DNA from: an uncultured bacterium
GTDB lineage: Bacteria > Babelota > Babeliae > Babelales > Vermiphilaceae
NCBI GenBank assembly: GCA_963701085.1
Contig: OY969561.1
Coordinates: 128,001-192,000, forward strand
Reading direction: 5' to 3'
Length of the DNA: 64,000 nucleotides
A model generated the notes under the pieces. The model ran no database searches and was not told where the DNA came from. It saw only the letters and a list, made by a program, of their open reading frames with translations. The position numbers and the translations under genes are program-made. Positions 108 through 42,616 of this stretch are shown piece by piece. Positions within the stretch are counted from its first letter, which is position 1; every line of letters starts with the position of its first letter.

Positions 108-872
108 ATGCGTAAAAAAGTTATTTTTTCTTTACTTATGATTACTACTGCATTGCATGGCATGGAAATTGTAGTAGATAAAAAAAATTGTTCTTTTGAA
201 GCTGTAACAGACAAGAAAATAAATTATCTTTTTGAAGTTGCTGCTGATCCTGAAAAACAATTTACTCAAGAAGATTTTATTGATCCGTCGTATGTTAATA
301 TGTCTTATCATATTGTTACACATGGTGATAATTGGACAAAGTATACCCCTCATACTTTGTTATCTATGGCAAGTCGGGAAGCTCAGTTAAGTAAAATACA
401 AAAACTTATTGTAGCTGGAGCTGATTGTAAAAATGAAATTAATAATAATGTCCTGTTGAAAATGGCTGCCAAAAGGGGAAAAATAAAGCATCAAGATGTT
501 AAAGAAAAATGTTTTGCCATTATAAAGTTGTTACTTGAACATGAAGCAGATCCAGACTATCATTCATGGAAATTTGGGCCTACAGCGGTAATGATTGCTG
601 CATGTTATCAGGATAAAGAATTAGTCAGGCTATTATTGTGTAAATATAATGCAAAAATTGATTTTCATGACATTATTAAACTGTCTAAAGAACATAAAGA
701 AATTTCAGAGATGGATCAATTATATGCTAAAAAAATGCATAAACACTTTGTTGCAAGAAATACGGTTCGTTGGTGGTCTACGTATAAATGTAAACCCGAT
801 ATGATATTTGACATGCAAACAGGAGAGCCAATTTGCTGGTTTAAAGAAGTGATTAAGGAAATTGGAAAATAG
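108..872 (+). CDS. Secreted ankyrin-repeat protein
   Basis: Signal peptide MRKKVIFSLLMITTALHG|ME; ankyrin motifs (LIVAGAD, LLLEHEADPD, TAVMIAA...LVRLLL). Start moved to ATG 108, which overlaps the stop of an upstream ORF at 113-115. Confidence 0.8.
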   Translation: MRKKVIFSLLMITTALHGMEIVVDKKNCSFEAVTDKKINYLFEVAADPEKQFTQEDFIDPSYVNMSYHIVTHGDNWTKYTPHTLLSMASREAQLSKIQKLIVAGADCKNEINNNVLLKMAAKRGKIKHQDVKEKCFAIIKLLLEHEADPDYHSWKFGPTAVMIAACYQDKELVRLLLCKYNAKIDFHDIIKLSKEHKEISEMDQLYAKKMHKHFVARNTVRWWSTYKCKPDMIFDMQTGEPICWFKEVIKEIGK

Positions 873-1364
873 TTATGAATAAAAAAATAATGATTTTTTC
901 CATTCAAGTAACAGTTGCGGTGGATAGCAGGTAATAGTTTTTATGTTAGGTTGATATCGCTTTCTATGATCATTGAGCAATGTTTCAGTCGCGTATTTTA
1001 AATGTCTATAATGTCCGTCTGAATGTGAGTCCTTACACTCTCGGTACCATTCTCGTTCGCGGTCTTTTTGTTGTTGTTCCCATTTTGCTTTATTTTTTTC
1101 AGCTTCTTTTGCTGCCCGTTGATGCATTTCGTTAAGTTCATCCGATGAAAGTTTTGGAAATTGATTGTAGTATTCTATGTTTTTTTGTCGATCAGTTTTG
1201 TTTTTTTGTTGATCAGCTTTAAGCTTTTTGCATTGCATTTGTTCAAACCAATGGCGCAATTCAGGAGTTCCAATACAGGTTTGCAGGCCAGGCACATGTT
1301 GTGCCGCAAAAGATGGAATGCTGTGTGCGATAAGACATGCGGCAATGATTGCTATCTGTTTCAT
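873..1364 (-). CDS. Secreted hypothetical protein
   Basis: Signal peptide ending SFA; extended -10 (TGCTATAAT on minus strand, 1411-1419) upstream. Confidence 0.6.
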   Translation of the reverse strand: MKQIAIIAACLIAHSIPSFAAQHVPGLQTCIGTPELRHWFEQMQCKKLKADQQKNKTDRQKNIEYYNQFPKLSSDELNEMHQRAAKEAEKNKAKWEQQQKDREREWYRECKDSHSDGHYRHLKYATETLLNDHRKRYQPNIKTITCYPPQLLLEWKKSLFFYS

Positions 1365-1459
1365 AAAAAAATGATCTTTCTTTGTGGTGTATAAATATTG
1401 GTTTTTTAGTATTATAGCATACCAATAAGCAGAATATTACTTTTTTTGAGGAGCAGTAA

Positions 1460-2284
1460 ATGAAAATTCAGAATCTTTTTTTTGGATTGTGTGCATCAGT
1501 GATGGTTGCATCAGAAATATCTGCAATGCAACTTGTTACAAAACGAGTGCCATGTCTTACTTCACAAAGTTTAAAAAAATACAAGTCATTTCAAATTCCA
1601 ATAGGTAACTCTAGTCTTACTTTTCATGGCGATGAAGTACCTGTACATATACAAGAAATTTATGATGAGATTAAAGATATTGGTGCGATGAAATGTGCAA
1701 ACAAATATCTTACTGATCCAGGCATAAATGGAGACGTGTGCAACTCAGATATATGCTGCGGTAGGGCATTTTTTTTGGCTATGCAAAAAAACATACAAGC
1801 GCAACAAGAAATGAACGCAATAAAAGATAGATTTTTGAAGAGCCTTGGAAAAAAAGGTAGGTGTGTATATCTGGAAGATATTAAAGAAAAATATATACAG
1901 TTAGCTAAATATAGAGTTCTTTTGAATGAATTTTGTGGTAAAGCAGATTGGCAGAAGCGTTTAAAATTATATGTGATGATTAATAATATAAACGTTTGTT
2001 TATTCAATCAGGCTCAGGTGATTATAGAGGATAGTTTTGAGCGTTGGAAGCAGGATAATTTTAAAATGACTCCTGAAATAGAAAGTGTTCATTCAATACG
2101 AGCGGATATTAATGAATGGCATAAAAATGAACAGGAATATAGTGATGAGATTGTGGATGAGCAATCAAAAGCAAACTATCAAAGAATAGCTTTGGTTAGA
2201 AATGGTATTATGACATATAAATTAAGTCGCATTGATGAAGAATATAAGTTGCTGCATTGTGGTAATAAACCAACAAGGGAATAG
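1460..2284 (+). CDS. Secreted hypothetical protein, Cys-rich segment; paralog of 2288..2968
   Basis: GAGGAG RBS; signal ...EISA|MQLVTKRVP; shared Y-D-x-I/V-x-x-I-G-x-x-x-C...C-x(2-3)-C-C segment. Confidence 0.75.
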   Translation: MKIQNLFFGLCASVMVASEISAMQLVTKRVPCLTSQSLKKYKSFQIPIGNSSLTFHGDEVPVHIQEIYDEIKDIGAMKCANKYLTDPGINGDVCNSDICCGRAFFLAMQKNIQAQQEMNAIKDRFLKSLGKKGRCVYLEDIKEKYIQLAKYRVLLNEFCGKADWQKRLKLYVMINNINVCLFNQAQVIIEDSFERWKQDNFKMTPEIESVHSIRADINEWHKNEQEYSDEIVDEQSKANYQRIALVRNGIMTYKLSRIDEEYKLLHCGNKPTRE

Positions 2285-2287
2285 AAA

Positions 2288-2968
2288 ATGAAGTACAAGA
2301 ATATTTTTTTTGGATTGTGTGCATTGATGGTAATTGCATCAGAAATGTGCGCAATGCAACTTGTTACTCGGCGAGTGCCAAAATCTATGCATCAGATAAA
2401 TATTATGAATTCCATGTTGCAAAAAAGAAAATATTATGAGGAAGCTGGTGAGATTGTTGCAGGAGCGATGATGATTTTACCAGTGGCTTATCTGATCGGA
2501 CCAGTAGCTGGTGTTATGTACTGTATTACTATATCCGCTTTGTGTGAGGGTTCGCATAGAGTTTATAATGCAACAAAGTATGCGATAAATCCAAAGAAAT
2601 TTACTGCTAATACCCTCTATGATCAAGTTGCAACAATTGGTAGTGAAAGATGTTCTACTGCTTATATAAAAAAAGAAGAGTGTCAAAATGTATGTTGTTG
2701 CAAGCATCTCGATCCAAATGATACTCAGAAAAAAAGAGCTGAACTTTTCTATGATATTAATCAGGAACGTAATTTTTTAATTGATGTAAAATATGGTTTG
2801 CAAAGGTTACGTGGTAAGAAAGAAGAAGCAAAATTATTGTTTATTCAAAATAAAATTGATGCTCAAGGATATGCAAAAGTGATAGGCTTGCTTGATCATA
2901 AAAAAGATTGTTATATAAAGCAGCATGCTCTTTTTGAAAATCAGTGTGAATTGATATTAAAAGAGTAA
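2288..2968 (+). CDS. Secreted hypothetical protein with a hydrophobic segment; paralog of 1460..2284
   Basis: Near-identical leader ...EMCA|MQLVTRRVP; internal hydrophobic stretch; CQNVCCC motif. Confidence 0.75.
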   Translation: MKYKNIFFGLCALMVIASEMCAMQLVTRRVPKSMHQINIMNSMLQKRKYYEEAGEIVAGAMMILPVAYLIGPVAGVMYCITISALCEGSHRVYNATKYAINPKKFTANTLYDQVATIGSERCSTAYIKKEECQNVCCCKHLDPNDTQKKRAELFYDINQERNFLIDVKYGLQRLRGKKEEAKLLFIQNKIDAQGYAKVIGLLDHKKDCYIKQHALFENQCELILKE

Positions 2969-3084
2969 AGAAGAGATGTATAATACCCTCGGTCTTACCT
3001 ATTGGTGAGAACAAGGGCTTTTTATTTATGGATAAGAAAATCAAATTTTTTGACTTTATGGATAGGTTCTAAAAAATAAGACAA

Positions 3085-3330
3085 TTATTTTGGATCAGTC
3101 ATGAGAATTCGACTCAGTTTTTTCTCACGTTCTCTTTTGATTTCTATTGTCTTTTCCCGTTCTTTCGCTCTTTTATTTTTAGTGGTTGGACTGTAAGAAA
3201 CTTTGATAGTTTTTTTGTCATTGTTTTTGTTGGGCATTGGAATTTCAGAATTATTCATTGCATGAATGGTCATAGTAGATAGGCAGAAAAATAATAAGAA
3301 AATATTTGTTCTTTGTGTCATCATCATCAT
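3085..3330 (-). CDS. Small secreted basic protein
   Basis: Signal ...TIHA|MN; Lys/Arg-rich remainder; AAGGA RBS. Confidence 0.55.
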   Translation of the reverse strand: MMMMTQRTNIFLLFFCLSTMTIHAMNNSEIPMPNKNNDKKTIKVSYSPTTKNKRAKEREKTIEIKREREKKLSRILMTDPK

Positions 3331-3399: not shown

Positions 3400-4527
3400 T
3401 TAAAGTTTTTTTGTTTTATCATTCCAGGGCGCTATTTTACTGAGATAAAAAAATGTTTTTGCACCTTTGCTGAGCAACAGGTCTATTATGTCTCGCACGG
3501 TTTCAGGAGGATATTTATCCTTGTTACCATTGAGTAATCTTTTTGCACTATCGAGTGGAGTTTCATTCTTTAAATTTTTTATATTGAGGCAAATGTTGGG
3601 TGAGGAAAGAAGGAGAGTTACCATGGTTAGATCGCCATTTTTTACCGCAGTGTTCAGTGGTGAATTACGATTTTCAGCACATAAATTGACTTTAATATCA
3701 GGATGTTTAAGAAGTATTTCAGCAATATGATAATGTTTGTGCTGAACAGCGGCGTGTAGTGCGGTAAATTCTGCACGGCATAGATGATTGAGAGTAGATG
3801 GATATGCTTGTAACAATAGTCTTGTTATGGCGCTGCGGTTATGGAGAACAGCAAAATATAATGGTGTAGATGTGCACCATCTAGGAGAATCCAAGAACGG
3901 TATTATTTGAGGGTCTTTAAGAAGCCGTTCAATAATATGAGTGTGCCCATTAAATATTGCGATGTGTAAGATAGGATGGTCGTTGTATGTAAGGTAATGC
4001 TGTTCGTTCTCTTTACTTGTTAAATAATCATTTAATAAGGGCAAATCTCCCATATATACCGCTTGCGCATAGATTGGAGGTTTTTCTGCATCTGATTGAG
4101 CATTATATTCTTTTAATAACGTGATGAGGCGTTTATTCTGTTGGTCCATTGCTATATTAAGCGGTAGCATTTTCAAAAATGGTGAGGAATGGTTTGGCCT
4201 TGCTCTGTATTGTAATAAATTTTCTACGGCAGCTGCATTGCCATAATGCGTTGCGCAGAATAGTCCAAATTGAAGGTCTTTTTTGGACAATATAAGTGGT
4301 GAATGTGCATAAATGTCGTGACTGATTCTTTTACTGAATTTTTCCAGTTTTGTGCATGTTCTCGCCAGAACATTTTTTGATTTGTCTGTGCAGCACGCAA
4401 TAATTTTGTGCCACATATCATTGGGTAGTTCAGTATAGGGAGTAATAACTTGTGGTTCCATGCATATGATCGGGATTATCGTAAAAAGAGCATATGCTAC
4501 GGCATTACAAGAGATTAGTTTTTTCAT
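3400..4527 (-). CDS. Secreted F-box-like + ankyrin-repeat protein
   Basis: Signal ...IIC|ME; ELPNDMWHKII...LARTCTKL is F-box-like; several ankyrin repeats (TPLYFAV, TALHAAV, SPLNTAV, TPLDSA). Confidence 0.85.
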   Translation of the reverse strand: MKKLISCNAVAYALFTIIPIICMEPQVITPYTELPNDMWHKIIACCTDKSKNVLARTCTKLEKFSKRISHDIYAHSPLILSKKDLQFGLFCATHYGNAAAVENLLQYRARPNHSSPFLKMLPLNIAMDQQNKRLITLLKEYNAQSDAEKPPIYAQAVYMGDLPLLNDYLTSKENEQHYLTYNDHPILHIAIFNGHTHIIERLLKDPQIIPFLDSPRWCTSTPLYFAVLHNRSAITRLLLQAYPSTLNHLCRAEFTALHAAVQHKHYHIAEILLKHPDIKVNLCAENRNSPLNTAVKNGDLTMVTLLLSSPNICLNIKNLKNETPLDSAKRLLNGNKDKYPPETVRDIIDLLLSKGAKTFFYLSKIAPWNDKTKKL

Positions 4528-5093: not shown

Positions 5094-5591
5094 TTAATAA
5101 TTGTTTAATAATTCCATTAAGCTTGGTTTGTAGGTAAAGGTTGAGTGTAGTTCGATATATTCACCTTTGGTGTCTACTTTATGCCAATAGCATGTGTAGT
5201 TTCCAAGATAATTAGTGGGTAAGGTGATATGCCAGACGTCATCTTTTTTTTCTGATTTTTGCTCTGGTACATAACCATATACTGTTTCTTGTTTTTGAAT
5301 TAAGTTCATAATAAAAGTGGCAAGTTCATCTGTTTGGTCTTTTCTGATTTTTGTAGTAATTATAAGACATGGAATTTCTTCGTTGTTATTTGTATTTTTG
5401 TTGATTTTTGTAGTTTTTTTTGATTTGGTAGGCTTTTCTATTATATTGAAAATTGCTTCTCTGCCGAGTTCATTTACTTTGTCTAAAAAAATAAGTTTTT
5501 CCATTTCAGTGAGTTGGGCCTCGAACCACATTCCTTGTGCTGAATATGATGAGAGTAAGAAAATGAATAATAATACTATGGTATGCTTCAT
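5094..5591 (-). CDS. Secreted hypothetical protein; paralog of 7356..7751
   Basis: Signal ...SAQG|MW; conserved GNYTxYWHK...L...LNN C-terminus. Confidence 0.75.
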   Translation of the reverse strand: MKHTIVLLFIFLLSSYSAQGMWFEAQLTEMEKLIFLDKVNELGREAIFNIIEKPTKSKKTTKINKNTNNNEEIPCLIITTKIRKDQTDELATFIMNLIQKQETVYGYVPEQKSEKKDDVWHITLPTNYLGNYTCYWHKVDTKGEYIELHSTFTYKPSLMELLNNY

Positions 5592-5633: not shown

Positions 5634-5690
5634 TTAAAAAGAAATCGTGAAAATTGATCATCTACGATCAACTTCACGATTTCTTTTTAA
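5634..5690. terminator. Long hairpin with A/T tails (intrinsic terminator-like)
   Basis: 18-bp perfect inverted repeat TTAAAAAGAAATCGTGAA plus inner TTGATC/GATCAA. Confidence 0.6.
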
Positions 5691-5694
5691 TCTT

Positions 5695-5739
5695 GCGCGC
5701 TCGTCCTGAACTTGTTGAAGGATATCTTCGAGTGCGCTC
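5695..5739. repeat. Palindromic repeat type A, partial (left arm plus core)
   Basis: GCGCGCTCGTCCTGAACTTGTTGAAGGATATCTTCGAGTGCGCTC matches the copy at 18269. Confidence 0.85.
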
Positions 5740-5742: not shown

Positions 5743-6927
5743 TTATTTTATATCATGCTTGGATTCAGGCATTACAATTTTAACTCCTGTTTGTGTGCTA
5801 ACAAATAATTGAGGCTCACCTTCATATTCATCATATGCCATGCAATGTATTATTGGTTCATTAAGTATGCTATTGATGATAAAAGGTTTATCTGTGGTAA
5901 GATCCCATATATTCACCACAGCATCCTTATCTCCGCAGGAGAACAACTGTGTTCCAGCATCATTTTCTTGAATGCATTTTATTGAATTGGTACTTTCAAG
6001 TGTATGTATACTTTCTTGCATATTGCGCATATCCCATATTTTTATTGTTTTATCCCATGATGACGAATAAAACTATCTGTCCTTTTTGCTTTTTGCAAGA
6101 GCAGTTACCGCACGGCCATGAGGGTTAAGAGCATAGATGCATTTCCCTTCACGCATGTCATAGACAAGTATGGGGCCATTGTACAATAGACCACCCATTC
6201 CTCCTGCTGCATATATCATATGAGTATCTGCTAATAATCTCCAAGGAGTTGCGTTGTCATACCTTTGTGGTAATGCTTGTTTGCATGATTGTGTAGTAAC
6301 ATCCCATATTTTTATTTCTCCTTGATTAGCTAAAGAACAAAGATCGCCATGTGGGTTTTCCGATAAGGCACTAAAATAACAACGATCAGGCAATGTACCT
6401 TTGCATTCATGAGAATTTGTATCCCATATTTTAATCATGCTGTCTTTTGCAGCTGTATACACAAATGATCCGTTCTTATTTGCAATTGCACATGTAATTT
6501 TTTGGGCGCGGTCATGACGATCAGTATGGAGAGTATCAATTTTTTTGGTAATAATTGTACCATCTATGGTGTTTGATATATCCCATATATACATGTCATC
6601 ATCAACCATCCCGTATAATTTATGTTTGGTTTTTATGAGAATATGTGGCGATTGTTCTACTTTCCAGTGGTTATGTATAAAAGAACGTTTAACATCATTG
6701 GTAAAATCATCATTCATACATGTACTTATTGTTTCTATGGATTTGAGAGCATTAGTGCGTTGTTCATCATAAGTTTTCCCATAGCCCGTTGTTATTTGGT
6801 GTTTGCATAAGGCATAGAGTGTTGGTATTTTGTTTTTCGCGCTATCTGATGATTTGTCCATTCCATTAGTTGCATATGATGATAGTAATACAATGAAGAG
6901 TGTGAATAATGTGATAGTATGCTTCAT
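5743..6927 (-). pseudogene. Secreted BC-box-like + WD40-repeat protein interrupted by one in-frame TAG (6073-6075)
   Basis: Signal ...TNG|MD; IPTLYALCKHQI; WD40 repeats (IKIWD, VNIWD). The frame continues through TAG as KDR*FYSSSWDKTIKIWDMRN into ORF 5743..6030. Confidence 0.75.
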
Positions 6928-6936: not shown

Positions 6937-7326
6937 TTATTCTTTGTCTGGATAATTAAATGCATTTCCAAAGTGTGCCCGATATGATTTTTTTTGTGTT
7001 TTTGTTGTGTTAGATCTGCTTTGTTTCATTGCTTCATGTTGTTCAAGAAGAGCTTCAGCTTCTTTATTTTTACAAGCAATCGCTTCGCTGAGTATTACTA
7101 ATTTCTTTACTTGTTTCACTTCTTCTTCAGTTGCGTTAGCTTTTTTATGAGCGTCTGTGGGTTGTTGTTGTGGCAAGCAATTAATTTTTTTTGGTATTTG
7201 TATCGTTGTAAAGCGTGTTGTTGTAATGACGTTGCGAGGTGATTTTTTAATGCAGAGCATAGCACACGCTTTTGTTGTAGGTAATAAAGAAATGAATAGT
7301 ATAAGAATATTGTTTTTTATGCGCAT
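6937..7326 (-). CDS. Secreted hypothetical protein
   Basis: Signal ...ACA|ML followed by a basic, Thr-rich segment. Confidence 0.65.
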   Translation of the reverse strand: MRIKNNILILFISLLPTTKACAMLCIKKSPRNVITTTRFTTIQIPKKINCLPQQQPTDAHKKANATEEEVKQVKKLVILSEAIACKNKEAEALLEQHEAMKQSRSNTTKTQKKSYRAHFGNAFNYPDKE

Positions 7327-7355: not shown

Positions 7356-7751
7356 TTATTGATTATTTAACACATCCAATAAACTGTTTTTATCATAAAA
7401 ATTCGCTTCTAGTTTAATGTAGGCACCATTGTGGCCAATTTTGTGCCAATATTGTGTGTAATTACCTATATAGCCTCGCTTTGCTATTTTATGAGAAGTA
7501 CGTTGTGTTTCTAGCTCATTGATTGTTGTAATAATAAGCTGTGCCAATGGGTCCTTTGATTGAGGATAGATATCCCACGTAATATATTGCGGTTCTATTG
7601 GTTCTTTGATGTGTTGTAAAGCAGTTGATGTGCCAATGCGATTAACTTCGCGTAAAAAAATGTGCTCTTCTATTTCGCTTAAAGATTTATGCATTCCGTG
7701 TGATGTAATAGTAGTGAAAAGTAAACAGAAAAATAGTTGCATATTCTTCAT
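7356..7751 (-). CDS. Secreted hypothetical protein; paralog of 5094..5591
   Basis: Start reassigned to MKNMQLFF (7751); signal ...TSHG|MH; GNYTQYWHK motif. Confidence 0.7.
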   Translation of the reverse strand: MKNMQLFFCLLFTTITSHGMHKSLSEIEEHIFLREVNRIGTSTALQHIKEPIEPQYITWDIYPQSKDPLAQLIITTINELETQRTSHKIAKRGYIGNYTQYWHKIGHNGAYIKLEANFYDKNSLLDVLNNQ

Positions 7752-7839: not shown

Positions 7840-8448
7840 TTATGGAAAATCGGCCCGATATGATTCACACCAGGGCATTGTGTGGAAGCTACTTCTATGA
7901 CCAGGTTTTGTTTTTGTAGCATACCATTCAAGTTGACTAATAATGTCATTATATTTAAGTGTTTTTGCGAGTGAAATTGCATTTGTTATGATCTCGCTGT
8001 TATGTGCAGGGTATTCTATGTCTAAAAGCCACATGATAAATTTTTTATTGTTTTGTGTAATGCCGTAAGTAAAGACGCTATTTTTGCATAAAGGTTCTAA
8101 TTGGGTATTCTTTAGGTATAATTTTTGTGCTATGTTTTTCAGAATTGGTTCGTCATTGTTGTAGAGTTCATACATTTCTTCATCTATCGCGAGAGCTCCT
8201 TTTTTGTGCCATTCAAGCATTAGATCTTTATTGCCGGCTTTACATGCTTCTCTATAGTGTTTATTCAAAAATGTTTGTGGATTGACAAGTTGAGCGTATT
8301 TTTTATTGGTAAGTCTTAATGCATTTTTTGAGAGTCGGTTGAGGCGCGGGCTTATAGTATACACAATGATATCATGTGGCATTTTTTCCATGGCGTGAAT
8401 CGTTATGCTTGGTAATAATGCCAGGCATAGTAAAAATTTATGGTGCAT
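7840..8448 (-). CDS. Secreted F-box-like protein with degenerate ankyrin-like repeats
   Basis: Signal ...TIHA|ME; MPHDII...LSKNALRLTNKKY is F-box-like; AAGGA RBS. Confidence 0.65.
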   Translation of the reverse strand: MHHKFLLCLALLPSITIHAMEKMPHDIIVYTISPRLNRLSKNALRLTNKKYAQLVNPQTFLNKHYREACKAGNKDLMLEWHKKGALAIDEEMYELYNNDEPILKNIAQKLYLKNTQLEPLCKNSVFTYGITQNNKKFIMWLLDIEYPAHNSEIITNAISLAKTLKYNDIISQLEWYATKTKPGHRSSFHTMPWCESYRADFP

Positions 8449-10296: not shown

Positions 10297-10893
10297 ATGA
10301 AAACCAACAGAGTATCTATTTATTTTTTTTTGACGATAGTCATATCTTTTGTGCAGCCGTTGCACAGCATGGAGAATGCAACAACTATGTCTGTAAATGA
10401 ACGCCTTGCATGGCAGATTGTGCTGATGCATGGGGTTGCATTGTTCAATTATGAAATGATTGATTCTTTAGTTGTGAGCAAAAATCATGATGCAATTTTA
10501 CGCAGTACTGCTGAATGCAGAAAACAATTTTTTATGCAAAAACATCCACACTTCAAAGAAGTAAACGATCTTGAATGGAATACATATGGTACTGCTTGTG
10601 CTAAAGTGCAATGGGGTAAAAAATTAAATAGACAACAGATCCCATTGATGACTTTTTTGGAATTTCCAGCTTTGCTCAAAGCTTTTTTGAATTCAACAGT
10701 CATAGTGTTTGATAGCTATGACAAAACATATGCCCTCGAAGGTGTAGAAATTCATAAAAACTATCAGAAATGGAAACAATATTTTTCTACACCACAATAT
10801 ACTTCATTTAATGATTTGCCAAAATTTATACGTAAAGCAATTGTTGGGCGTTATAAGGCGCAATATGAACTGAGGAAGAAAATTATTTGTTGA
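10297..10893 (+). CDS. Secreted hypothetical protein
   Basis: Signal ...LHS|ME; C-terminal FNDLPKFIRKAI motif. Confidence 0.65.
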   Translation: MKTNRVSIYFFLTIVISFVQPLHSMENATTMSVNERLAWQIVLMHGVALFNYEMIDSLVVSKNHDAILRSTAECRKQFFMQKHPHFKEVNDLEWNTYGTACAKVQWGKKLNRQQIPLMTFLEFPALLKAFLNSTVIVFDSYDKTYALEGVEIHKNYQKWKQYFSTPQYTSFNDLPKFIRKAIVGRYKAQYELRKKIIC

Positions 10894-12677: not shown

Positions 12678-12705
12678 CAAAATTTACAAATGCAGATATG
12701 CTTCT

Positions 12706-12773
12706 CGCGCTCATTCTGAACTTGTTGAAGAATTAAAGCGCGCTTAACCCTTCAACAAGTTCAGGGTGAGCGC
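12706..12773. repeat. Palindromic repeat type A (both arms)
   Basis: CGCGCTCATTCTGAACTTGTTGAAG...CCCTTCAACAAGTTCAGGGTGAGCGC. Confidence 0.9.
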
Positions 12774-12789
12774 ATTTGGAAAAGTGATA

Positions 12790-13776
12790 ATGGTTAAAGT
12801 GTTTTGTGTAGTTATGTCCCTTCTAGTGCACATGCACGTTTTTGCGCAGCAAGAAATGGTTTCTTGTGCCTCACAATCATTCCATTTGGTTGATAAACAA
12901 CGTAAAGAATTTTATACAGATGATCAAGCGCATCCATGGCGTGAATTAATGGTGCGTGTGTGGTATCCAGCAGATGGTACCGATATACATAAGATATCAG
13001 ATAAGCAACGGTACTACCCGCTGCTTATTTTTTCGCATGGATTGGGCGGTGTATTTAATGGTGATAGTTATGCAACGCTGTGTGAGGCGTGTGTAAAAGC
13101 GGGGTATGTTGTAGCTACAATTTCCCATTCCTATGCATGCAAGCCGGTACAATTTTCTGATGGCCGCATAACAACTCATTCATGGTGGAATGTTGTACCG
13201 GGGTATCTGTCAGGTCGAGAAATGGATGTGTGGGAAGCCGATGTTGAATATGTGCTTAATCAGTGTGAGAAATATACACAGGATGAGCGCTCATTCTTAT
13301 ATAACAAACTTGATTTGAATAGAATTGGCATGTTTGGCCATTCATATGGTGGTGCAGCGGCAGTTCAAATGTGCCGTAAAGATCATCGTATTAAAGCGGC
13401 GATTAATCTGGATGGGCCATTGCGTGGTAATGATGCAACAGCACCATTTAATAAGCCATTACTTTTTATTATTGCGGCACCACTTTCCTATAACAATGCA
13501 TTAATGAAAGATGCAGCAATAGTTAATGATGTTGGTTGGTCACGATGTATGTATTCTCGCGAAATTTCCGTTATTAATGCATTTGCTCAAGCAATGAATA
13601 ATAATGTCTACAAAGTTGTAATAGATGGCATTCGTCATACTACATTTTCTGATGAAATATGTGCGCAACATACACTCTTGGATGATTTTTTGATTGATCC
13701 TTGCGTAGCACATACCATTATCAATTCATATGTAATTGATTTTTTTAATGAGTACTTAAAAGGAATGGAGTTTTGA
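12790..13776 (+). CDS. Secreted alpha/beta hydrolase (PAF-acetylhydrolase/dienelactone hydrolase-like)
   Basis: RELMV.VWYP, PL.IFSHG, GHSYGG nucleophile elbow, INLDG, H.TFSD. Confidence 0.85.
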   Translation: MVKVFCVVMSLLVHMHVFAQQEMVSCASQSFHLVDKQRKEFYTDDQAHPWRELMVRVWYPADGTDIHKISDKQRYYPLLIFSHGLGGVFNGDSYATLCEACVKAGYVVATISHSYACKPVQFSDGRITTHSWWNVVPGYLSGREMDVWEADVEYVLNQCEKYTQDERSFLYNKLDLNRIGMFGHSYGGAAAVQMCRKDHRIKAAINLDGPLRGNDATAPFNKPLLFIIAAPLSYNNALMKDAAIVNDVGWSRCMYSREISVINAFAQAMNNNVYKVVIDGIRHTTFSDEICAQHTLLDDFLIDPCVAHTIINSYVIDFFNEYLKGMEF

Positions 13777-15026
13777 TGAAAATAATTTTTAATGCAGCAC
13801 TTTTTTTGTTTATATCATATAACGCACAATGCATGGATATTACCCATTGCCCAAAAAATAGTAAAGAAGACGAATTTATTATGTGTATGGCGTCGATGCT
13901 GACGGTATGTAATAAGGTATATTCACAAGAAGAGTTTGAGATGTTTTGTCGTCAAAATTGGAACAATAACAAGGCTATGCGTCAAAATTTTAAAAGTTTT
14001 CTTCGTAATCCACAACCCATTACAAGTCATGAGGATGCGGTTGTTGGGAATGAATTTGTGGCGGACATGGTGCCGCATATGATGGTGTTTAATAAACATG
14101 GATGGTCAAAAGGAGATTGTGAGGCGGTTGCACGTCTACTTTGGTACAACGATGTAAAATTTCGTAGGGAATATAAAAAATCGAAACAGACATTGGTCGG
14201 GCATAGAACATTGGACAATCTCTCTGAGCACACACTTAATATAATTGGAGCATTCACCAAAAGATCTGGCAAAGATACGTTACGATGCGTTAATAGAACG
14301 CTTAACCAAAAAATAATATCACAAGATGAGTTGTATGAGCGCTATAATGAAGCAAAGAAATTAATAAATACATATTTTAAAAAAACAGAAATGAATCGAT
14401 TGTTGTGCTACAGCAGATTTACCCCCGAGCTAAAGTATGAAATGCTTGAGGCTATTAAACATAACAATGCTCCATTCATACGATATTTTTTGAGAAAATA
14501 TGATTTTACTAATGTAGATTTGTACCATTACCTTGCAGCTGCCATCAAGAGCGGTAATAGCGCTGATATATTAAAAATGTTAATTGCAGTAGGCGTTATA
14601 AATCGTATTGATCGCAGTAGTGTTACTGTATTGCAGCATGCGGTAATTAAAGGAAAAATAGAGTTGGTTAGGCAGCTTGTTGCGCATCCAGGTGTTGATA
14701 TAAATCAACAAGATGAATGGGGTAGGACTGCTTTGTTTTTGGCTGTAGAAAACATAAAACCGTTTGATCAATTATCATATGATATGATTAAAGTTCTTCT
14801 TGATGCTGGTGCAGATCATGAGATTGCTGCTATTTACAGGGACAGGACTCCGCTTGATATGGCTAATAGAATCGTTGCTCGGAAATCAAAAAAACCGTAT
14901 TGTAAAATGCATGACTGGTCTATTTTTAGAAAAAGGCGAGCTCTTTGTGAGGCTAAATCAGATCCTAAGCTTGTGTATCCTATTCATCTCATTCAACAAG
15001 CGATAGATAAGAAGTGTGGTATTTAA
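13776..15026 (+). CDS. Secreted ankyrin-repeat protein with internal F-box-like segment
   Basis: Signal ...AQC|MD; LDNLSEHTL..I.......LRCVNRTL; ankyrin motifs (DINQQDEWGRTALFLA, LLDAGAD, TPLDMA). Confidence 0.8.
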   Translation: MKIIFNAALFLFISYNAQCMDITHCPKNSKEDEFIMCMASMLTVCNKVYSQEEFEMFCRQNWNNNKAMRQNFKSFLRNPQPITSHEDAVVGNEFVADMVPHMMVFNKHGWSKGDCEAVARLLWYNDVKFRREYKKSKQTLVGHRTLDNLSEHTLNIIGAFTKRSGKDTLRCVNRTLNQKIISQDELYERYNEAKKLINTYFKKTEMNRLLCYSRFTPELKYEMLEAIKHNNAPFIRYFLRKYDFTNVDLYHYLAAAIKSGNSADILKMLIAVGVINRIDRSSVTVLQHAVIKGKIELVRQLVAHPGVDINQQDEWGRTALFLAVENIKPFDQLSYDMIKVLLDAGADHEIAAIYRDRTPLDMANRIVARKSKKPYCKMHDWSIFRKRRALCEAKSDPKLVYPIHLIQQAIDKKCGI

Positions 15027-15826: not shown

Positions 15827-15864
15827 GTGCGCTTTAACCCTTCAACAGGTTCAGGGTGAGCGCG
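15827..15864. repeat. Palindromic repeat type A, right arm only
   Basis: GCGCTTTAACCCTTCAACAGGTTCAGGGTGAGCGCG, near-identical to the 3' half of the 12706 copy. Confidence 0.85.
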
Positions 15865-15876
15865 GGGAAGGATTCG

Positions 15877-18216: not shown

Positions 18217-18268
18217 TATTTCTGCCTTGCTGCTTGTTTTACATAGTATGAATTATTTTTATCTTATT

Positions 18269-18344
18269 GCGCTCGTCCTGAACTTGTTGAAGGATGTCTT
18301 CGAGCGCTCGAGGAAAACCCTTCAACAGGTTCAGGGCGAGCGCG
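18269..18344. repeat. Palindromic repeat type A (complete)
   Basis: GCGCTCGTCCTGAACTTGTTGAAGG-core with CGAGCGCTCG-CCCTTCAACAGGTTCAGGGCGAGCGC. Confidence 0.95.
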
Positions 18345-18385
18345 GGAAAGTATATAGAGAATAAGTGCAATGTTTTAAGTTTATA

Positions 18386-22964: not shown

Positions 22965-24835
22965 TATTTTTCCCTATATGTTTTGCGAGTTCAACAGCAA
23001 CTTCTTTAATCATAGATTGCCAATCACCTGGCGTAGGTTGTTTGAATAGGCGAGTGATGTTTGGATACCATGGAGAATCATTGCGATCTATCATCCAGCG
23101 CCAATCAGCAGGGTTCGGGAGCATAATCCATGTTGGTGTGCCAAGCCCACTTGCAAGATGGCTGATTGATGTATCAACCGTGATAATAAGATCGAGATTT
23201 TTTATTACCGCAGCAGTATCCATAAAACGACCATTGCTCTGATCAAAATCACCATCAAACGTGATAATGCGCATGCCTTCTGGTAAATCCTTAAGTTGAT
23301 CGGTGCCGGTTGTTTTTTGCAGGCTGTAAACAGTTACGCCGGGAACGTTGCAAATAGGTGCAAACTCTTTTGGATGTACTGATTTTTGGGCAACGGTTGC
23401 GCGTAATAATGGTGTTGCATAGTTATCATTTCCTTGCCAACAGATGCCAATTTTAAAGTTTTTATCCGCGGATAATTTTTGTTTCCAATCAGCTACTAAT
23501 TTTTCATCAGCATAAAGGTATGGAATTTCACAGGGAACAGTATCAAGGCGTGTTTTCAGAACATACGGTAATGATAACAATGGTGAATGAACATCAAAGT
23601 GTGGGGGGGTGTCATCGAGTGAAATCACTTGATCGATATGTTTGCAACGTTTCATGAGGGTGACGAGTGGTTTTTGTACTGCAGCAATAACAATGCCATT
23701 TTTTTCTTTGATCAATTTCGCGTAACGAATAAATTGAAACGTATCGCCAAGCCCTTGTTCTGCGTGAATTAAAATTGTTTTGCCTTGTAAATCTGATCCA
23801 TCCCAGCGTGGTTCAGAGTAGCTGCGCAATGATCCTTGAGAAGGGCGGTCTGTAGCGCCATTCATATCCATGCCATCCGCGTTCAAAATCGCCGATTACA
23901 AGATACGCAAGGCCGCGACTAAAGAGTGCCTCTGCATGGTTGGGATTAAGCTCGAGTACTTTATTATAGTAAGGGAGTGCTTGATCCAAGTAACCAAATT
24001 TTTTGTAAGTGAATGCAATGTTGTATAAAATTGATGGATTGTTTGGTAGTTGACGGTTAAGATCTTGGTATATTGCGAGTGATTCATCAAGTCTGTTGAC
24101 GGTGTTATAAACATTAGCAAGTTCAAAGGTTAAGTTGATATGGCCTGGTTCAAGGGTAAGCCCATCAGTAATAATATTAAGTGCTTGATTAAAAAGATGT
24201 TTATCATTGTAAACGCGTGCAAGTAATAGACGCGTGTCAGGGTCATTGGGGTTAAGAATGAGTGCTTGTTTAAATGGTTCAATTGCATCGCCTGCTTGTT
24301 TGACATCCGTCATTACTTTGCCAATTTGAATGTATGCACGATAGTGATCTTTTTTATGCTGAATTGTTTTTTTATACGCATATAACGCCTCAGAATATTT
24401 TTTTGCATAATAGAGTGCTTGACCAAGATTGAAAAATATCTGTGCGCAGGTGGGATTTAATGCAAGTGCTTGTTTGTAAAATGCAATTGCTTCATCATAC
24501 TGTTCTGCGGTAAAAAGGCCATTTGCATGTTTGCTGAGTGCTTCAAAAGATTGGTAGTCGATATATGAGTGTGGTTGTGGTTTTTTGAGATAATTTTCTA
24601 TTGCGGTAAACGTAACTTGTTTGTTTGCATTGCAAAGGGATGTAGTGAGTAGTAGAAGGATTACCCTTCGATACATTCTCCTGTGGAGAACACTCAGGGC
24701 GAGCGGGAAGAGAAATATATTATTCTTAAGGATTGCGGTAAATTCTAGCCCGCTCGTCCTGAGTGCCACCGTAGGTGGTGTATCGAAGGATGGTGCGGAA
24801 GAAAAACGTAGAATAGTTTGTTTAGTTGTATTCAT
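22951..24835 (-). CDS. TPR-repeat glycosyltransferase family 9-like protein, split by a 1-nt frameshift near 23850
   Basis: TPR repeats to GWHGYEWRY (ORF 23813..24835), then WDGSDL.GK.I...EQGLGD (ORF 22951..23886). Confidence 0.85.
24664..24790. repeat. Two type B repeats in inverted orientation (24664-24707, 24749-24790) inside the 5' end of a CDS
   Basis: CCCTTCGATAC-ATTCTCC TGT GGAGAAC-ACTCAGGGCGAGCGGG and a reverse copy with a CCACC/GGTGG inner stem. Confidence 0.9.
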
Positions 24836-26809: not shown

Positions 26810-26954
26810 CGCGCTCGCCCTGACCCTTCGGCAAGCTCAGGAGTAAACACCTGCCTTGAGAACTTGCAGTGCCTGCCGAAGCCTTGGCGAAGGCAGGTTG
26901 AAGGGTTTCTTAGAGCGCTCGAAGAGATCCTTCAACAGGTTCAGGACGAGCGCG
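26810..26954. repeat. Composite repeat: type A with type D (26824-26848) and a type C-containing insert (26854-26897) nested in its left arm
   Basis: CCCTGA|D|ACCTG|insert with C|TTGAAGGG-core-CCTTCAACAGGTTCAGGACGAGCGCG. Confidence 0.9.
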
Positions 26955-26981
26955 AAAAGGCAAGAATGATCGGGTTGTCTA

Positions 26982-34888: not shown

Positions 34889-35708
34889 ATGAAAAAATAT
34901 AGTGGAGTATTGTTATTGTTTATTGTTCAAAATATTTATGCAATGGAATTGGATCCCTTTGATAGATGTATCGAATATGATGGTAAATGTCAGTTAGTTG
35001 CCAAGTATTTGTATAAATATCCCAAAGGAAAAAATAAGAACGAAGCATGGCAAATTGAACGTTTTTTGGAAGATACGATATCAGAATGTGTAACTATTTT
35101 GCCATGGCAGGTCAAAAAATATAAAAATATTTTAGCAACTAAGGACGCCGAAGAATATTTGCATGCTATCTATAAAGAGGAACTTTCACAGGATTTAAGG
35201 CAGAAGATTTTTACACAAGCATTATCTTATTCGGCCGAAGACTATTATGCTACTCATAATAGTCTTCAATTTTTAGAGAAATGCCAACCATGGGGTCTTC
35301 CACGTTATAATTCTTCTGCCATAAAAAATTTTTACAAACCATATTTTTTGGCTGAGATACATGAAGAAGATGTTTGTATGCATTTTTCCGGTTTAGATGA
35401 TAATGTGCCAAAGAGTACAAGACTTCAACACAGTTAAACTTGTTAATACTGCAGGACAGCTTGTTAACAGATGCTCGGTTGGTTATGACTGTGAGATGAA
35501 ATTAATAAGAAAATTAATTTCTTTTTTGGATAAAAAAGATGAAAGAGTAAATAAGTTTAAAATAATGTTTAATCATTACATTGAACAACTTTCTCAGATA
35601 AATGAGGAAGAAAATGGTGTTAACATGTTTACTTTCCTTCTCAGCCAGTTTAAAGATTTAACAAAGCATATTGTATATCTTTATACAGGAAGAGATCGAT
35701 TAACATAA
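34889..35708 (+). CDS. Secreted hypothetical protein, probably one gene split by a frameshift near 35400-35437
   Basis: Signal MKKYSG...IYA|ME; overlapping ORF 35397..35708 has no obvious RBS. Confidence 0.55.
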
Positions 35709-37763: not shown

Positions 37764-37765
37764 GT

Positions 37766-38387: not shown

Positions 38388-39791
38388 ATGTTTATGAAAT
38401 CAGATTTTTTTGGTGGCTTAGCGCCACGCACGGAGCAGCTTTCTGTTTATTCGTTACGAAGAAAAGAGCTTGTTGAATCAATTAAATTAGCGTTTCCGCA
38501 AATTTCGCACGGTATGGTTGTGTTGTTTGCAGCCTTTGAACAAGGTAGTGAGCGGTTTAGACAAGATAAAACATTTTTTTATTATACCGGTGTGAATGAG
38601 CCGGGAACGGCATTGGTGATTGATTTGGCGGGAAAATCAACATTGTATATTCCTAATTGTTTTGAGAAACGCGCGCAATGGATGACGTTGCCAGCAGCTT
38701 TGGTTAACCGTGATGCAAAGGCGCTTGGTGTTGATGCGGTTGAATTGCTGGGTGATGAGTGTGAAACATATGAATTAAATCCCTATTTCTCTGAACATGA
38801 ATATGCGCACATGATTGCACGTATGAAAAATGTTATTGCACGCGGCGGGTCACTGTTTTCAACGGCGCCAAATAATGGCCATGAATATGTAAACACTCGT
38901 TTTACGTTTGATCATTTACAAAAATTTATTTCTGACGTACAGAAGTCTATTGTGGATATTTCATCGATTATAGCGAGTAGCAGGCGACGCAAAGATGTTG
39001 GTGAAATAGAACATGTTTATCGTGCGATAGAGATTACTGAGCTTGCACATGAGTCGGCAGTTCAGGCTATTAAGCATGAGGCTTTGGAGGCGGAAGTCCA
39101 GGCTTCTTTAGAGTATATGATGATAGCATCTCATGCGCGACCAGCATTTCCAAGTATTGTAGCCAGTGGTAAAAATGGTACGGTGCTGCATTATAATCAA
39201 AATAGTGGCACGCTCAAAAATGGTGATCTTTTGGTTGTTGATATTGGGGCTGAGTTTAATAATTATTGTGCCGATTTGACGCGCACTTACCCAGTATCAG
39301 GGGCGTTTACCAAACGCCAGAAGGAATTGTACAACATTGTTCTTGAAACTCAAACTTACATTGCATCGCTTGCAAAACCTGGCATCTGGCTTAAAAATAA
39401 AGATAAAGCTGAACAATCTCTTCATCATTTAGCGGTTAAATTTCTAGCCAAGCGTGGCTATGACAAATATTTTCCGCATGGAATTGGACATTTTCTTGGC
39501 CTTGATGTGCATGATGTTGGTGATTATTCTCTCCCTCTTCAAGAAGGAGATGTTATTACGATTGAGCCAGGGATTTATATTGCTGCAGAAAATATTGGAA
39601 TTCGTATTGAAGACAATTACTGGATTACCAAAGAAGGTGCTATTTGTTTGAGTGAGCATCTGCCTAAAGAAGCAGATGATATTGAGGCTGTTGTGCAGCA
39701 AGCTCTCCGTGGTGAAACTGATGATGAAGATGATGACGAGTATGAAGATGATGAAGATTTTGATGACGAAGAAGATGATGTGTTTAATTAA
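38388..39791 (+). CDS. pepP: Xaa-Pro aminopeptidase (M24B) with acidic C-terminal tail
   Basis: FRQ...F.Y.TG, DIGAE..Y.ADLTRT, HGIGHFLGLDVHD, TIEPG.Y, GIRIED. Confidence 0.9.
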   Translation: MFMKSDFFGGLAPRTEQLSVYSLRRKELVESIKLAFPQISHGMVVLFAAFEQGSERFRQDKTFFYYTGVNEPGTALVIDLAGKSTLYIPNCFEKRAQWMTLPAALVNRDAKALGVDAVELLGDECETYELNPYFSEHEYAHMIARMKNVIARGGSLFSTAPNNGHEYVNTRFTFDHLQKFISDVQKSIVDISSIIASSRRRKDVGEIEHVYRAIEITELAHESAVQAIKHEALEAEVQASLEYMMIASHARPAFPSIVASGKNGTVLHYNQNSGTLKNGDLLVVDIGAEFNNYCADLTRTYPVSGAFTKRQKELYNIVLETQTYIASLAKPGIWLKNKDKAEQSLHHLAVKFLAKRGYDKYFPHGIGHFLGLDVHDVGDYSLPLQEGDVITIEPGIYIAAENIGIRIEDNYWITKEGAICLSEHLPKEADDIEAVVQQALRGETDDEDDDEYEDDEDFDDEEDDVFN

Positions 39792-41419: not shown

Positions 41420-41448
41420 TTGACCGTATTATAAATATTAGCTACTTT
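41420..41448 (+). promoter_or_regulatory. Sigma70-like promoter for rplM
   Basis: TTGACC-17 nt-TACTTT. Confidence 0.5.
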
Positions 41449-41515
41449 AGAACAAAGAGCCCCACTCTTAAAAAATTGATTACAATAATACTGTTTCACA
41501 TAAAGGTGATGATTT

Positions 41516-41974
41516 ATGAGTATGAATAAAGCGTTTTATCCACGCAAAGAAGATGTAGCAGCTGGATGGTGTCATATTGACGCTAATGGTAAAGTACTAG
41601 GTCGTTTGGCTACGTTTGTTGCTGATAGATTGCGCGGCAAAGATAAGCCACACTATACACCTCATACTGATTGTGGTGATTATGTTGTGATTACTAATGC
41701 TGAAAAAATCTTCCTTTCTGGCGACAAGTGGGAAGGTAAAGAGTATGTTACGGTATCTGGTTGGCAGGGTGGAAAGAAAGAAGTTTCTGCTAAAGATTTG
41801 CACAAAAAACACCCAACACATCTTATTGAGTTGGCTGTTAAGCGTATGTTACCTAAAAACAAGCTCAGCAGACAAATCATTAAAAAGTTAAAAATATATG
41901 CTGGATCAGAACATCCTCATGTTGCACAAAGCCCAACAGTAGTTGAATTAGAAATTCAAACACCGCGTGGCTAA
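41516..41974 (+). CDS. rplM: 50S ribosomal protein L13
   Basis: IDA.G.VLGRLA, GK.KP.YTP..DCGD, AV.RMLPK, HPH.AQ. Confidence 0.95.
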   Translation: MSMNKAFYPRKEDVAAGWCHIDANGKVLGRLATFVADRLRGKDKPHYTPHTDCGDYVVITNAEKIFLSGDKWEGKEYVTVSGWQGGKKEVSAKDLHKKHPTHLIELAVKRMLPKNKLSRQIIKKLKIYAGSEHPHVAQSPTVVELEIQTPRG

Positions 41975-41995
41975 GCAATAGTAAATAGTTATATC

Positions 41996-42030
41996 AAAAA
42001 AGAGCACTTCTTGAAAAGTGCTCTTTTTTT
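41996..42030 (+). terminator. Intrinsic terminator after rplM
   Basis: AAAAAAGAGCACTT...AAGTGCTCTTTTTT. Confidence 0.8.
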
Positions 42031-42226
42031 GCGTTGAATGGCTACTTTGACATCATCAGTATGAATTTTTTGGTGCGTATTACCTGGAATGTTTTAAAAA
42101 ATTATTGCAATCTGAATAAGTTATTTGCTAATTTCAAGGTACGTAGAGGCCTCTACGGTAAAATAAGAGGCATAGTGCATGGTGCAGTATGCTTCAAAAA
42201 AACGTTTTCATAAAAAGGAGAAAAAA

Positions 42227-42616
42227 ATGAAGACAAATATACAAAAAAGGCTGAATATTGGTTTATGTATTGCAATAATTATGATTCTTGCTGGTTCGAC
42301 AGTGTCATACGGAATGGATATGAAGCTTTGGTCAGAAAGAGATAAAAAGATAGCTGCATTAGGAGTTATTGACCTTGAAATGTTTAGTAGATGGGTTGAA
42401 TTGCCACATTTATATGCAGGCACATCGGAGAATAATCCCCTTTTATGGATTGTACAGAAAGCTAGTGATAAACAACTAGATCTTTTTGTGCGTATGAGTA
42501 AGGAGGGGCGGAATTTCAAGATCATCGGATATGGTGACGATCTTGATGCCTTCCAAAAGTTACCTAAACATGTAAAATCATATCTATCACACGTTTTTGG
42601 CTACACTATGCAATAG
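42227..42616 (+). CDS. Secreted hypothetical protein
   Basis: AAGGAG RBS; signal ...SYG|MD; C-terminal FQKLPKHVKSYL. Confidence 0.7.
   Translation: MKTNIQKRLNIGLCIAIIMILAGSTVSYGMDMKLWSERDKKIAALGVIDLEMFSRWVELPHLYAGTSENNPLLWIVQKASDKQLDLFVRMSKEGRNFKIIGYGDDLDAFQKLPKHVKSYLSHVFGYTMQ

Follow-up and report, generated by a model that had tools for sequence, protein, structure and literature searches.

A second methionine directly follows the N-terminal leader peptide of many predicted secreted proteins of an uncultured bacterium of the order Babeliales, a stretch of whose genome (the window, 64,000 nucleotides, G000:C1:128001-192000) is described here, and this methionine is most often itself followed by glutamate. 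An earlier note on the window had drawn attention to 14 such genes. These 14 genes hold, but the scope was understated, since about 200 genes of the source genome, G000, share the arrangement, which is a trait at the level of a clade. The evidence makes it very probable that this is a translated rule at signal peptidase I (SPI) sites, specific to one class of proteins and to certain lineages, and under selection. The fuller proposition, in which the Met-Glu rule applies to SPI sites of the host-directed secretome and in addition serves as a tag on the bacterial side, is in our judgment evenly balanced.

The Dependentiae (TM6) are parasites of protists that occur widely and are for the most part uncultured, and the Babeliales are obligate intracellular parasites of protists. 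G000 is a single contig of 1,198,634 bp with 37% G+C, in which our own caller recognized 1158 open reading frames (ORFs) covering 87% of the genome. According to the accessible parts of the genome reports, secretion in cultured Dependentiae relies on Sec and a type II system as the only systems found (PMC4378268), and signal peptides are present on 79 of the 126 ankyrin proteins of Babela massiliensis (PMC4378268), as well as on 44% of all coding sequences and 78% of the ankyrin proteins of Chromulinavorax destructans (PMC6561590).

Extent and shape of the junction

All 14 N-termini of the window agree with those previously listed, the second Met being an ATG codon at the expected place in each, and 11 of the 14 continue with Asp, Glu, Asn or Gln, as had been counted. 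Met follows the leader in 14 of 25 leader-bearing ORFs, against a Met background of 2.16% (binomial p = 2e-17). Ten other leader-bearing ORFs between 1 and 43 kb do lack it, in line with the contrast first drawn by the earlier note; they start at 873, 12766, 18461, 19085, 19647, 20862, 31687, 32205, 32579 and 32905, and ORF 31687 has a Cys directly after its leader, in a lipobox-like setting.

Genome-wide, the N-terminus resembles a leader in 531 of the 1158 ORFs, membrane anchors and some false positives being counted among them. Cleavage sites were assigned with a crude -3/-1 predictor of our own rather than with SignalP; it is blind to the +1 residue, and its scoring table admits no Met at -3 or -1. 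Met is nevertheless the commonest residue at the predicted +1 position (105 of 481 leaders, 21.8%, p = 7e-71 against the 2.16% background), while its frequency at the flanking positions is between 0 and 5.8% (0% at -3 and -1). A predicted cleavage falling mostly elsewhere than before the Met had been named as an outcome that would undo the proposal; the proposal withstands this, the Met lying where SPI would leave it at +1.

A leader followed by a small residue and Met ([AGSC]M) is found in 200 ORFs of G000, referred to below as box proteins, with the Met mostly at residues 18-27 and Glu (87), Asp (18), Asn (12) or Gln (6) at +2, which corresponds to an enrichment of 8.2-fold for Glu, 1.8-fold for Asp and 1.2-fold for Asn. 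When the first Met past the hydrophobic core is taken with the -1 position left free (n = 260), Ala, Gly, Ser or Cys precedes it in 68% of cases, versus 22% at 5587 inner Met, and Asp or Glu follows in 41% versus 9%. By our own heuristic, and still with -1 free, the residues in agreement with the -3/-1 rule among these 260 are Ala (62), Gly (60), Ser (36), Thr (20) and Cys (18) at -1, with Leu, Ile, Ser, Thr, Ala or Val at -3. The information is limited to positions -3 to +2, roughly [LITV]-[HFY]-[AGSC]/M-E (the slash marking here and below the predicted cut), with noise from +3 on; in addition, Ser, Thr, Asn, Gln and Pro are enriched at -4 and -6. A scoring matrix built on 105 M[DE] boxes, and thus trained partly on what it scores, gives values of at least 10 to 153 of 1037 Met at residues 13-46 but to only 9 of 5878 deeper Met. 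It also rescues 16 ORFs missed by the first classifier, bringing the class to about 216 of 1158 ORFs, or about one gene in six.

The box leaders otherwise fit the Sec/SPI layout, with a median length of 21 amino acids (interquartile range 19-24), a net charge of about +1.7 in the basic n-region, a hydrophobic core no different from the one in G000's classical leaders, and a polar c-region. Judged from these sequence features, they are genuine Sec-type signal peptides with a predicted SPI site and Met at +1. A separate targeting route based on leader hydrophobicity or charge was considered and rejected, the two leader classes being alike in both respects.

Proteins that carry the methionine

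Pfam families were searched in the first 400 kb of G000, covering 51 of the 55 Met-class ORFs and 107 of the 113 other leader-like ORFs of this region (the rest crossed locus borders). The Met class comprises 11 ankyrin proteins, one WD40 and one F-box protein, 29 proteins without a family and two false positives (MurC and a short-chain dehydrogenase), together with an S-adenosylmethionine (SAM) methyltransferase, a PLD, a HIT/CwfJ-like protein, an AAA ATPase, an alpha/beta hydrolase and two weak matches. The other class is made up of a penicillin-binding protein, DivIC, MreC, SecD, FtsW, HtrA, FtsH-like, S49, M48, thioredoxin, Cache and collagen/S74 fibre proteins, as well as glycosyltransferases, a nuclease, a lipase and a peptidase A4; one ankyrin and one WD40-like protein were also sorted into it, both of which do have the Met when inspected by eye. 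The enrichment in ankyrin, WD40 and F-box proteins over envelope proteins, which the earlier note had proposed to look for, is thus clear in these 400 kb: 13 of 15 repeat-domain proteins carry the Met, whereas it is present in 0 of 14 proteins of the envelope or of cell division (Fisher p = 2e-6).

Extended to all of G000, the family searches give a similar picture, with the mark on 38 of 44 ankyrin, WD40 and F-box proteins. Ank_2 matches occur in 42 ORFs, 10 of which are leaderless pieces at 513.5-520.8 kb, and outside this cluster a leader followed by Met is present in 26 of 32 ankyrin ORFs; all 10 WD40 ORFs that bear a leader show the same arrangement, as do 3 of the 4 ORFs with an F-box. 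In these searches the box was missing from Omp85 (two copies), OmpA, two secretins and the signal peptidase LepB.

The leaderless cluster (G000:C1:513500-520800) is the main exception to the ankyrin pattern; its ten ankyrin ORFs or pieces lie on one strand and may represent a broken, very large ankyrin gene or a tandem array. Two small paralogous ankyrin proteins of 177-187 amino acids (G000:C1:442400-442963 and 927524-928120) have the classical junctions INA/D and VNA/S, and may stay in the periplasm.

The leaders are translated

The earlier note had itself recognized that its proposal would fall if the inner Met were simply the true start codon behind an untranslated leader. More broadly, the inner Met could be a true or an alternative start, each gene giving in the latter case two products, one exported and one cytosolic. 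Codon usage is of no help here, as Met has a single codon, so that selection for an ATG start cannot be separated from selection for Met; furthermore, a Shine-Dalgarno-like word precedes only 42% of the leader starts, which implies that other modes of initiation exist. The distribution of these words is nonetheless telling: Shine-Dalgarno-like 4-mers are found before 83 of 200 leader starts and before 3 of 200 inner ATG codons, the latter being under the background of 6.2% seen at deep inner Met codons. Moreover, in 15 homologous pairs (four of which are not true box proteins) the 15 codons preceding the Met show mismatch rates of 0.36, 0.28 and 0.55 for the first, second and third codon position, respectively (chi-square p = 3e-8). 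This is the pattern of coding sequence, and the leaders are therefore translated. Glu is also atypical as the second residue of real starts: among 241 leaderless ORFs, Glu and Asp occupy this position in 6.2% and 3.3% of cases, versus 43.5% and 9% after the box Met. Nor is the pattern an artefact of AT-rich DNA upstream, as the same pipeline, applied to sister genomes whose G+C content (30-33%) does not exceed that of G000, detects no box. Finally, the -3/-1 pattern and its small -1 residue have no meaning for initiation, and homologues show Ala or Ser in place of the Met, never GTG or TTG, with -1 and +2 kept, so that the Met is not a start codon. Untranslated leaders, or dual products, are thus most unlikely, and the proposal survives on the grounds of Shine-Dalgarno words, codon pattern and +2 Glu alike.

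A related possibility is that leaders were added upstream of once-cytosolic genes and that the Met is a leftover of the former initiation codon, retained by inertia and functionless. In two relatives (G026 and G019), homologues of the secreted methyltransferase that have no leader do start with a Met, placed a few residues ahead of the conserved motif that they share with it, and AT-rich upstream DNA would readily encode peptides rich in Lys, Ile, Leu and Phe. Inertia, however, fits poorly with a Met that is conserved far above its neighbours in paralogues at 27-57% identity, with the excess of Glu over real starts just described, with a small -1 residue sitting exactly before the Met, and with the leader-bearing ankyrin proteins of sister lineages, where no such relic is found. 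We consider this origin improbable.

Selection rather than descent

The box proteins do not owe their junction to one shared leader cassette. Their mature parts fall into 138 BLAST clusters, 109 of them singletons, and the mean leader identity between clusters is 13%, which rules such a cassette out; only 19 cross-cluster pairs reach at least 50% identity, mostly from neighbouring genes. Within families, the junction outlasts its surroundings. At least 15 homologous ORFs of the genus and family related to a secreted methyltransferase (G000 121673-122554) keep a small residue, Met and Asp or Glu at 27-57% identity while the flanks vary, with Ala for Met in four ORFs of G009, G008 and G003. Similarly, Met-[DE] is kept in 14 pairs of a second set of homologues, and is replaced by Ala in five pairs (four distinct subject ORFs, one ambiguous) and by Ser in one. 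These replacements leave -1 and +2 unchanged, as expected at the P1' position of an SPI site.

Synonymous codons at -2, -1 and +2 are largely at genome usage, so the signal appears to lie mainly at the protein level; the exception is position -1, where codons ending in C are moderately overrepresented (GGC 40% vs 22%, GCC 18% vs 10%, TGC 60% vs 38%). A Kozak-like or other nucleotide motif, with G at -3 and G at +4, was likewise rejected, given this largely genomic codon usage, the use of AGY for Ser at -1 (40% vs 34% genome-wide) and the identity of the +2 residue, which is specifically Glu and not Asp, Gly, Ala or Val. Altogether, these sequence comparisons indicate that the junction is under selection, apparently mainly at the protein level.

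Distribution among relatives

Twenty genomes of the same order, sampled over 32-200 kb each, were passed through the same pipeline, and ORFs with a leader and [AGSC]M[DE] were counted per leader-like ORF. The arrangement recurs in eight of these relatives, as the earlier note had suggested should be looked for. Next to 31/167 in the first 400 kb of G000, the counts are 18/98 in G007, 9/89 in G010, 8/49 in G009, 6/47 in G008 and 5/48 in G006, all of the same genus, 8/80 in G012 and 13/66 in G017, of the same family, and 8/75 in G028, of another family. None was found in G016 (0/40), although it belongs to the same family, nor in other members of the order: G021 (0/23), G024 (0/45), G029 (0/21), G023 (0/76), G020 (0/45), G022 (0/44), G030 (0/32), G027 (0/25), G026 (0/24), G019 (0/21) and G025 (0/8). 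Pooled, this amounts to 106 of 719 leader-like ORFs in nine genomes versus 0 of 404 in the 12 others. The Met rule is thus patchy across the families, as these are labelled, within the order. The box-negative Babeliales genomes serve as the controls, one 50-kb piece of Escherichia coli having given just five leader-like ORFs.

Lineages without the box do not lack ankyrin proteins: Pfam family searches returned 43, 35 and 47 ankyrin matches in G016, G023 and G022, respectively. Of 15 complete ankyrin ORFs from four box-negative genomes, 14 have a leader and none has Met at +1, the junctions judged by eye being A/Q, S/Q, G/I, A/D, C/N, G/D, A/S and A/A. Since these proteins have leaders without the Met, the rule is a derived trait of some lineages or one that others have lost.

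Signal peptidase I

G000 has one SPI ORF (LepB, G000:C1:661030-662004), which is matched by TIGR02227 in two stretches, hereafter the split form. Its catalytic serine motif reads GSMETT, with Thr, as in 9 of the 10 Babeliales sequences aligned, while G020 has the usual GSMEPT, with Pro. Most family members also carry an insert, of about 35 amino acids in the alignment or about 77 by family-match coordinates, and four members of the genus (G003, G004, G006 and G009) have two LepB copies. In a LepB tree, the branching outside the genus was not resolved.

These features raise the question of a general shift of SPI specificity in the clade, whereby Met at P1' would be the best substrate for all exported proteins, a true counterpart of the Q-rule discussed below. 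One LepB gene presumably serves all substrates, and the unusual GSMETT motif and the insert in most members would be suggestive. Yet, within G000, exported proteins of the envelope and of housekeeping do without the Met, the motif and the insert are also present in box-negative genomes, and the LepB of box-positive G028 has no insert, all of which makes such a shift very improbable.

Comparison with known export signals

The closest parallel is the Q-rule of Bacteroidetes, in which Gln occupies +1 after SPI cleavage and is converted to pyroglutamate (PMC5837995, PMC10653852). As the Q-rule is described, the two have in common a strongly preferred +1 residue on Sec/SPI substrates that is confined to particular lineages, missing from their relatives, and recognizable as a statistical rule across the genome. 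They differ in the residues, here Met with Glu at +2, in scope, here one host-directed class of substrates instead of most exports, and in distribution, here patchy within one order instead of phylum-wide. In G000, the predicted +1 is occupied most often by Met, and Gln after [AGSC] in the c-region window is at 0.61 of background. No modifying enzyme comparable to glutaminyl cyclase is known or turned up for the Met rule, glutaminyl cyclase itself not having been searched for.

Lipoprotein signals end in a lipobox with Cys at +1, and the residues that follow sort the protein. The likeness lies in a short box across the cut, with [LIV] at -3, a small -1 and a near-invariant +1, and, on the tag reading proposed below, in first mature residues that decide the destination. 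Here, however, +1 is Met, with no Cys and no lipidation of a thiol, Ala and Ser swaps are seen, and SPI rather than signal peptidase II is the expected enzyme; +1 is Met in all 14 leaders of the window. Neither does the junction resemble other classical signals. None of these 14 leaders contains the RR of twin-arginine translocation substrates, and, in contrast to type IV prepilins, which are cut after a Gly ahead of the hydrophobic stretch and have Phe or Met at +1 and Glu at +5, the Met lies after the hydrophobic stretch and Glu is at +2; true pilin-like proteins (e.g., ...GFSLIELMVVV) are separate genes in G000.

Among intracellular parasites, the phytoplasma SVM signal peptide and the PEXEL of Plasmodium are N-terminal export elements, and cleavage of PEXEL leaves an acetylated x-E/Q/D start. 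As in these systems, many host-directed proteins that are otherwise unrelated have here an N-terminal export element in common, and the organism is an intracellular parasite; in contrast to them, only the junction is conserved, there is no RxL-type motif, and the route is the bacterial Sec pathway. No Pfam signal family, such as that of SVM, was matched in the 65 box proteins scanned out of about 200-216.

The ankyrin proteins of Babela and Chromulinavorax come from the same phylum, mostly carry signal peptides, and belong to bacteria for which, as far as the accessible parts of these reports go, a type II system is the sole secretion system found (PMC4378268, PMC6561590). The word methionine occurs 0 times in the main texts, supplements excluded, of the Babela (PMC4378268), Chromulinavorax (PMC6561590) and TM6 comparative papers, and a search of the full-text literature, which leaves out subscription journals, found no mention of a rule placing Met after the leader.

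Possible function of the Met-Glu start

We infer that SPI would cut between the small residue at -1 (Ala, Gly, Ser or Cys) and the Met, leaving mature proteins that begin with Met-Glu or, less often, with Met-Asp, Met-Asn or Met-Gln. The proteins concerned would form the host-directed secretome, i.e., ankyrin, WD40 and F-box proteins, secreted methyltransferases, other enzymes and many orphans, while envelope and housekeeping exports would stay outside the rule even though one SPI gene presumably cuts both classes. Our favoured, though tentative, reading of its purpose is that the exposed Met-Glu N-terminus, or the box around the cut, is read as a tag on the bacterial side, during or after cleavage. 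Such a tag could set apart proteins bound to exit the periplasm, by the type II system or in vesicles, from those that stay, and might work by analogy with the residues that follow the lipoprotein Cys or with the +1 Gln of Bacteroidetes. The switching on and off of the trait between lineages that all secrete ankyrin proteins suggests a lineage-specific reader. In its most explicit form, which we regard as possible but rather doubtful, Met-Glu would be an address tag for an undescribed second step that takes proteins from the periplasm to the outside and on into the host cell, gained or lost more than once in the Babeliales.

The earlier note had proposed, beside an undescribed two-step export route, a host-like N-terminus; on this reading, a start with Met-Glu, Met-Asp, Met-Asn or Met-Gln would have been selected for the host cytosol as a retained Met, of the class acetylated by the N-acetyltransferase NatB and outside the Arg/N-degron pathway. 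Methionine aminopeptidase leaves Met in place before Glu, Asp, Asn, Gln, Lys, His and Leu, and Met followed by Asp, Glu, Asn or Gln defines the NatB class. By sequence, 123 of the 200 box proteins would belong to this class, and +2 residues that permit Met removal (Gly, Ala, Ser, Thr, Val, Cys, Pro) total 27 of 200, compared with a proteome share of about 37%. The confinement of the rule to proteins expected to act in the host speaks in the same direction, as does the presence in the Met class of enzymes that depend on SAM or ATP and could not function in a periplasm. On the other hand, in the Arg/N-degron pathway a start with Ala, Ser, Thr or Gly stabilises a protein just as well, which leaves the choice of Met unexplained, and NatB acts mainly on nascent chains. 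The enrichment is for Glu specifically, at the values given above, and not for the whole set of Asp, Glu, Asn and Gln. Furthermore, the ankyrin proteins of box-negative sister lineages apparently start with Gln, Ile, Asp or Asn, which are destabilising by the Arg/N-degron rule, so that N-degron avoidance is not a general constraint on such proteins. A host-side function is in our view rather unlikely, and ranks next after the bacterial tag.

Several observations weigh against a Met rule with a bacterial tag as formulated here. The cleavage sites were predicted by a home-made rule, and the box class contains known false positives, namely MurC, the short-chain dehydrogenase, a pilin-like protein and a lipoprotein with a true lipobox (G000 1166148, LLPGC/M). 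The partition between classes is imperfect, as a PI3/PI4-kinase-like family and a C2H2 zinc-finger protein have leaders without the Met, and the Ala and Ser swaps among homologues make the Met a strong preference and not an absolute requirement like the lipoprotein Cys. Some of the negative samples are small (8-25 leader-like ORFs), and related genomes are not independent of one another. Regarding the peptidase, the split form of LepB was dismissed as the cause, being also present in box-negative G016, G021, G024 and G029, and no alignment column separates six box-positive from four box-negative LepB sequences, in an alignment that left out six further box-negative ones. Signal peptidase features thus do not track the trait, and no candidate for a tag-reading or two-step export machinery was found.

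The 14 proteins of the window and other features

The label effector-like, which the earlier note gave to all 14 window proteins, is borne out by domains for four of them, the ankyrin proteins starting at 108, 4527 and 13776 and the WD40 protein at 6927, but not for the other 10, which match no Pfam or NCBIfam family. The first ankyrin protein (108..872, + strand, Ank_2 3e-9) has a leader of 18 amino acids (MRKK...ALHG) followed by Met-Glu, with the Met codon at 162-164 and a box score of 25.4. The second (3400..4527, - strand, Ank_2 1e-32, with a weak F-box match of 18.9 bits, below the cut-off) has a 22-residue leader ending in PIIC before Met-Glu (Met codon 4459-4461, score 15.8), and the third (13776..15026, + strand, Ank_2 2e-13) a 19-residue leader ending in NAQC before Met-Asp (Met codon 13833-13835, score 20.8). 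The WD40 protein (6073..6927, - strand, WD40 family matches) has a leader of 22 amino acids ending in ATNG before Met-Asp (Met codon 6859-6861, score 22.3). Its gene seems to run on past one TAG into ORF 5743-6030, which also has WD40 matches; a WD40 family search at 5743-6927 (-) recovered a frame of 397 amino acids with one TAG, pointing to a split or decaying gene or to two genes.

Three of the orphans are weak members, with a charged residue, Glu or Lys, between the hydrophobic core and the Met. Two of these are paralogues on the + strand, at 1460..2284 (22-residue leader ending in SEISA, then Met-Gln, Met codon 1526-1528, Glu in the c-region, score 1.5) and 2288..2968 (22-residue leader ending in SEMCA, then Met-Gln, Met codon 2354-2356, score -2.2), whose 5' ends are spanned by a direct repeat (D6, 1450-1552 and 2278-2380). 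The third lies at 6937..7326 on the - strand (22-residue leader ending in TKACA, then Met-Leu, Met codon 7258-7260, Lys in the c-region, score 4.6). The ten other scored proteins reach 12-25, and the protein at 7356..7751 (- strand, 19-residue leader ending in TSHG, then Met-His, Met codon 7692-7694), which was missing from our ORF calls, was judged by eye and has no box score.

The remaining orphans on the - strand are a protein of 81 amino acids at 3085..3330, with a 24-residue leader ending in TIHA before Met-Asn (Met codon 3256-3258, score 17.8), a protein at 5094..5591, with a 20-residue leader ending in SAQG before Met-Trp (Met codon 5529-5531, score 12.2), and a third at 7840..8448, whose leader of 19 residues also ends in TIHA, before Met-Glu (Met codon 8389-8391, score 25.5). 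Those on the + strand are encoded at 10297..10893 (24-residue leader ending in PLHS, then Met-Glu, Met codon 10369-10371, score 22.2), at 34889..35437 (18-residue leader ending in NIYA, then Met-Glu, Met codon 34943-34945, score 22.7) and at 42227..42616 (29-residue leader ending in VSYG, then Met-Asp, Met codon 42314-42316, score 16.4).

Other features of the window include a tandem array of four small secreted paralogues at 19058-21425 (starts near 19085, 19647, 20256 and 20862), whose leader-coding sequences are conserved in the DNA itself, as direct repeats D1 and D2, and whose junctions, the classical A/A, G/D and A/V, have no Met. An M24-type aminopeptidase-like protein at 38388-39791 has a long, acidic C-terminal tail with many Asp and Glu residues, which is unusual for a bacterial housekeeping peptidase. 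A dispersed palindromic element with a G+C content above that of the genome occurs at 5678-5738, 12697-12783, 15836-15873, 18250-18353, 22775-22849, 24725-24762 and 26897-26970; its core is roughly GCGCTCGTCCTGAACTTGTTGAAGG ... CCTTCAACAGGTTCAGGGCGAGCGC, and it is found in both orientations, in intergenic regions and sometimes within long reading frames, where it reads as peptides such as LRSLGEG or FAEASAGR. It looks like a repetitive extragenic palindrome (REP) or a miniature inverted-repeat transposable element (MITE).

Significance

To our knowledge, the Met rule would be only the second lineage-specific +1 rule described for SPI substrates, after the Q-rule, and the first to be limited to one functional class. 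As a simple sequence rule that assigns some 200 proteins in each genome to a single export class, it provides a testable predictor of the host-directed secretome, orphans included, and it points to an undescribed recognition step, either bacterial or on the host side. Sister genomes with and without the rule offer natural contrasts in which a partner can be sought by comparative genomics. If Met-Glu is indeed an address tag, the whole host-directed secretome of these uncultured parasites of protists, about one sixth of their genes, would become definable from sequence alone.

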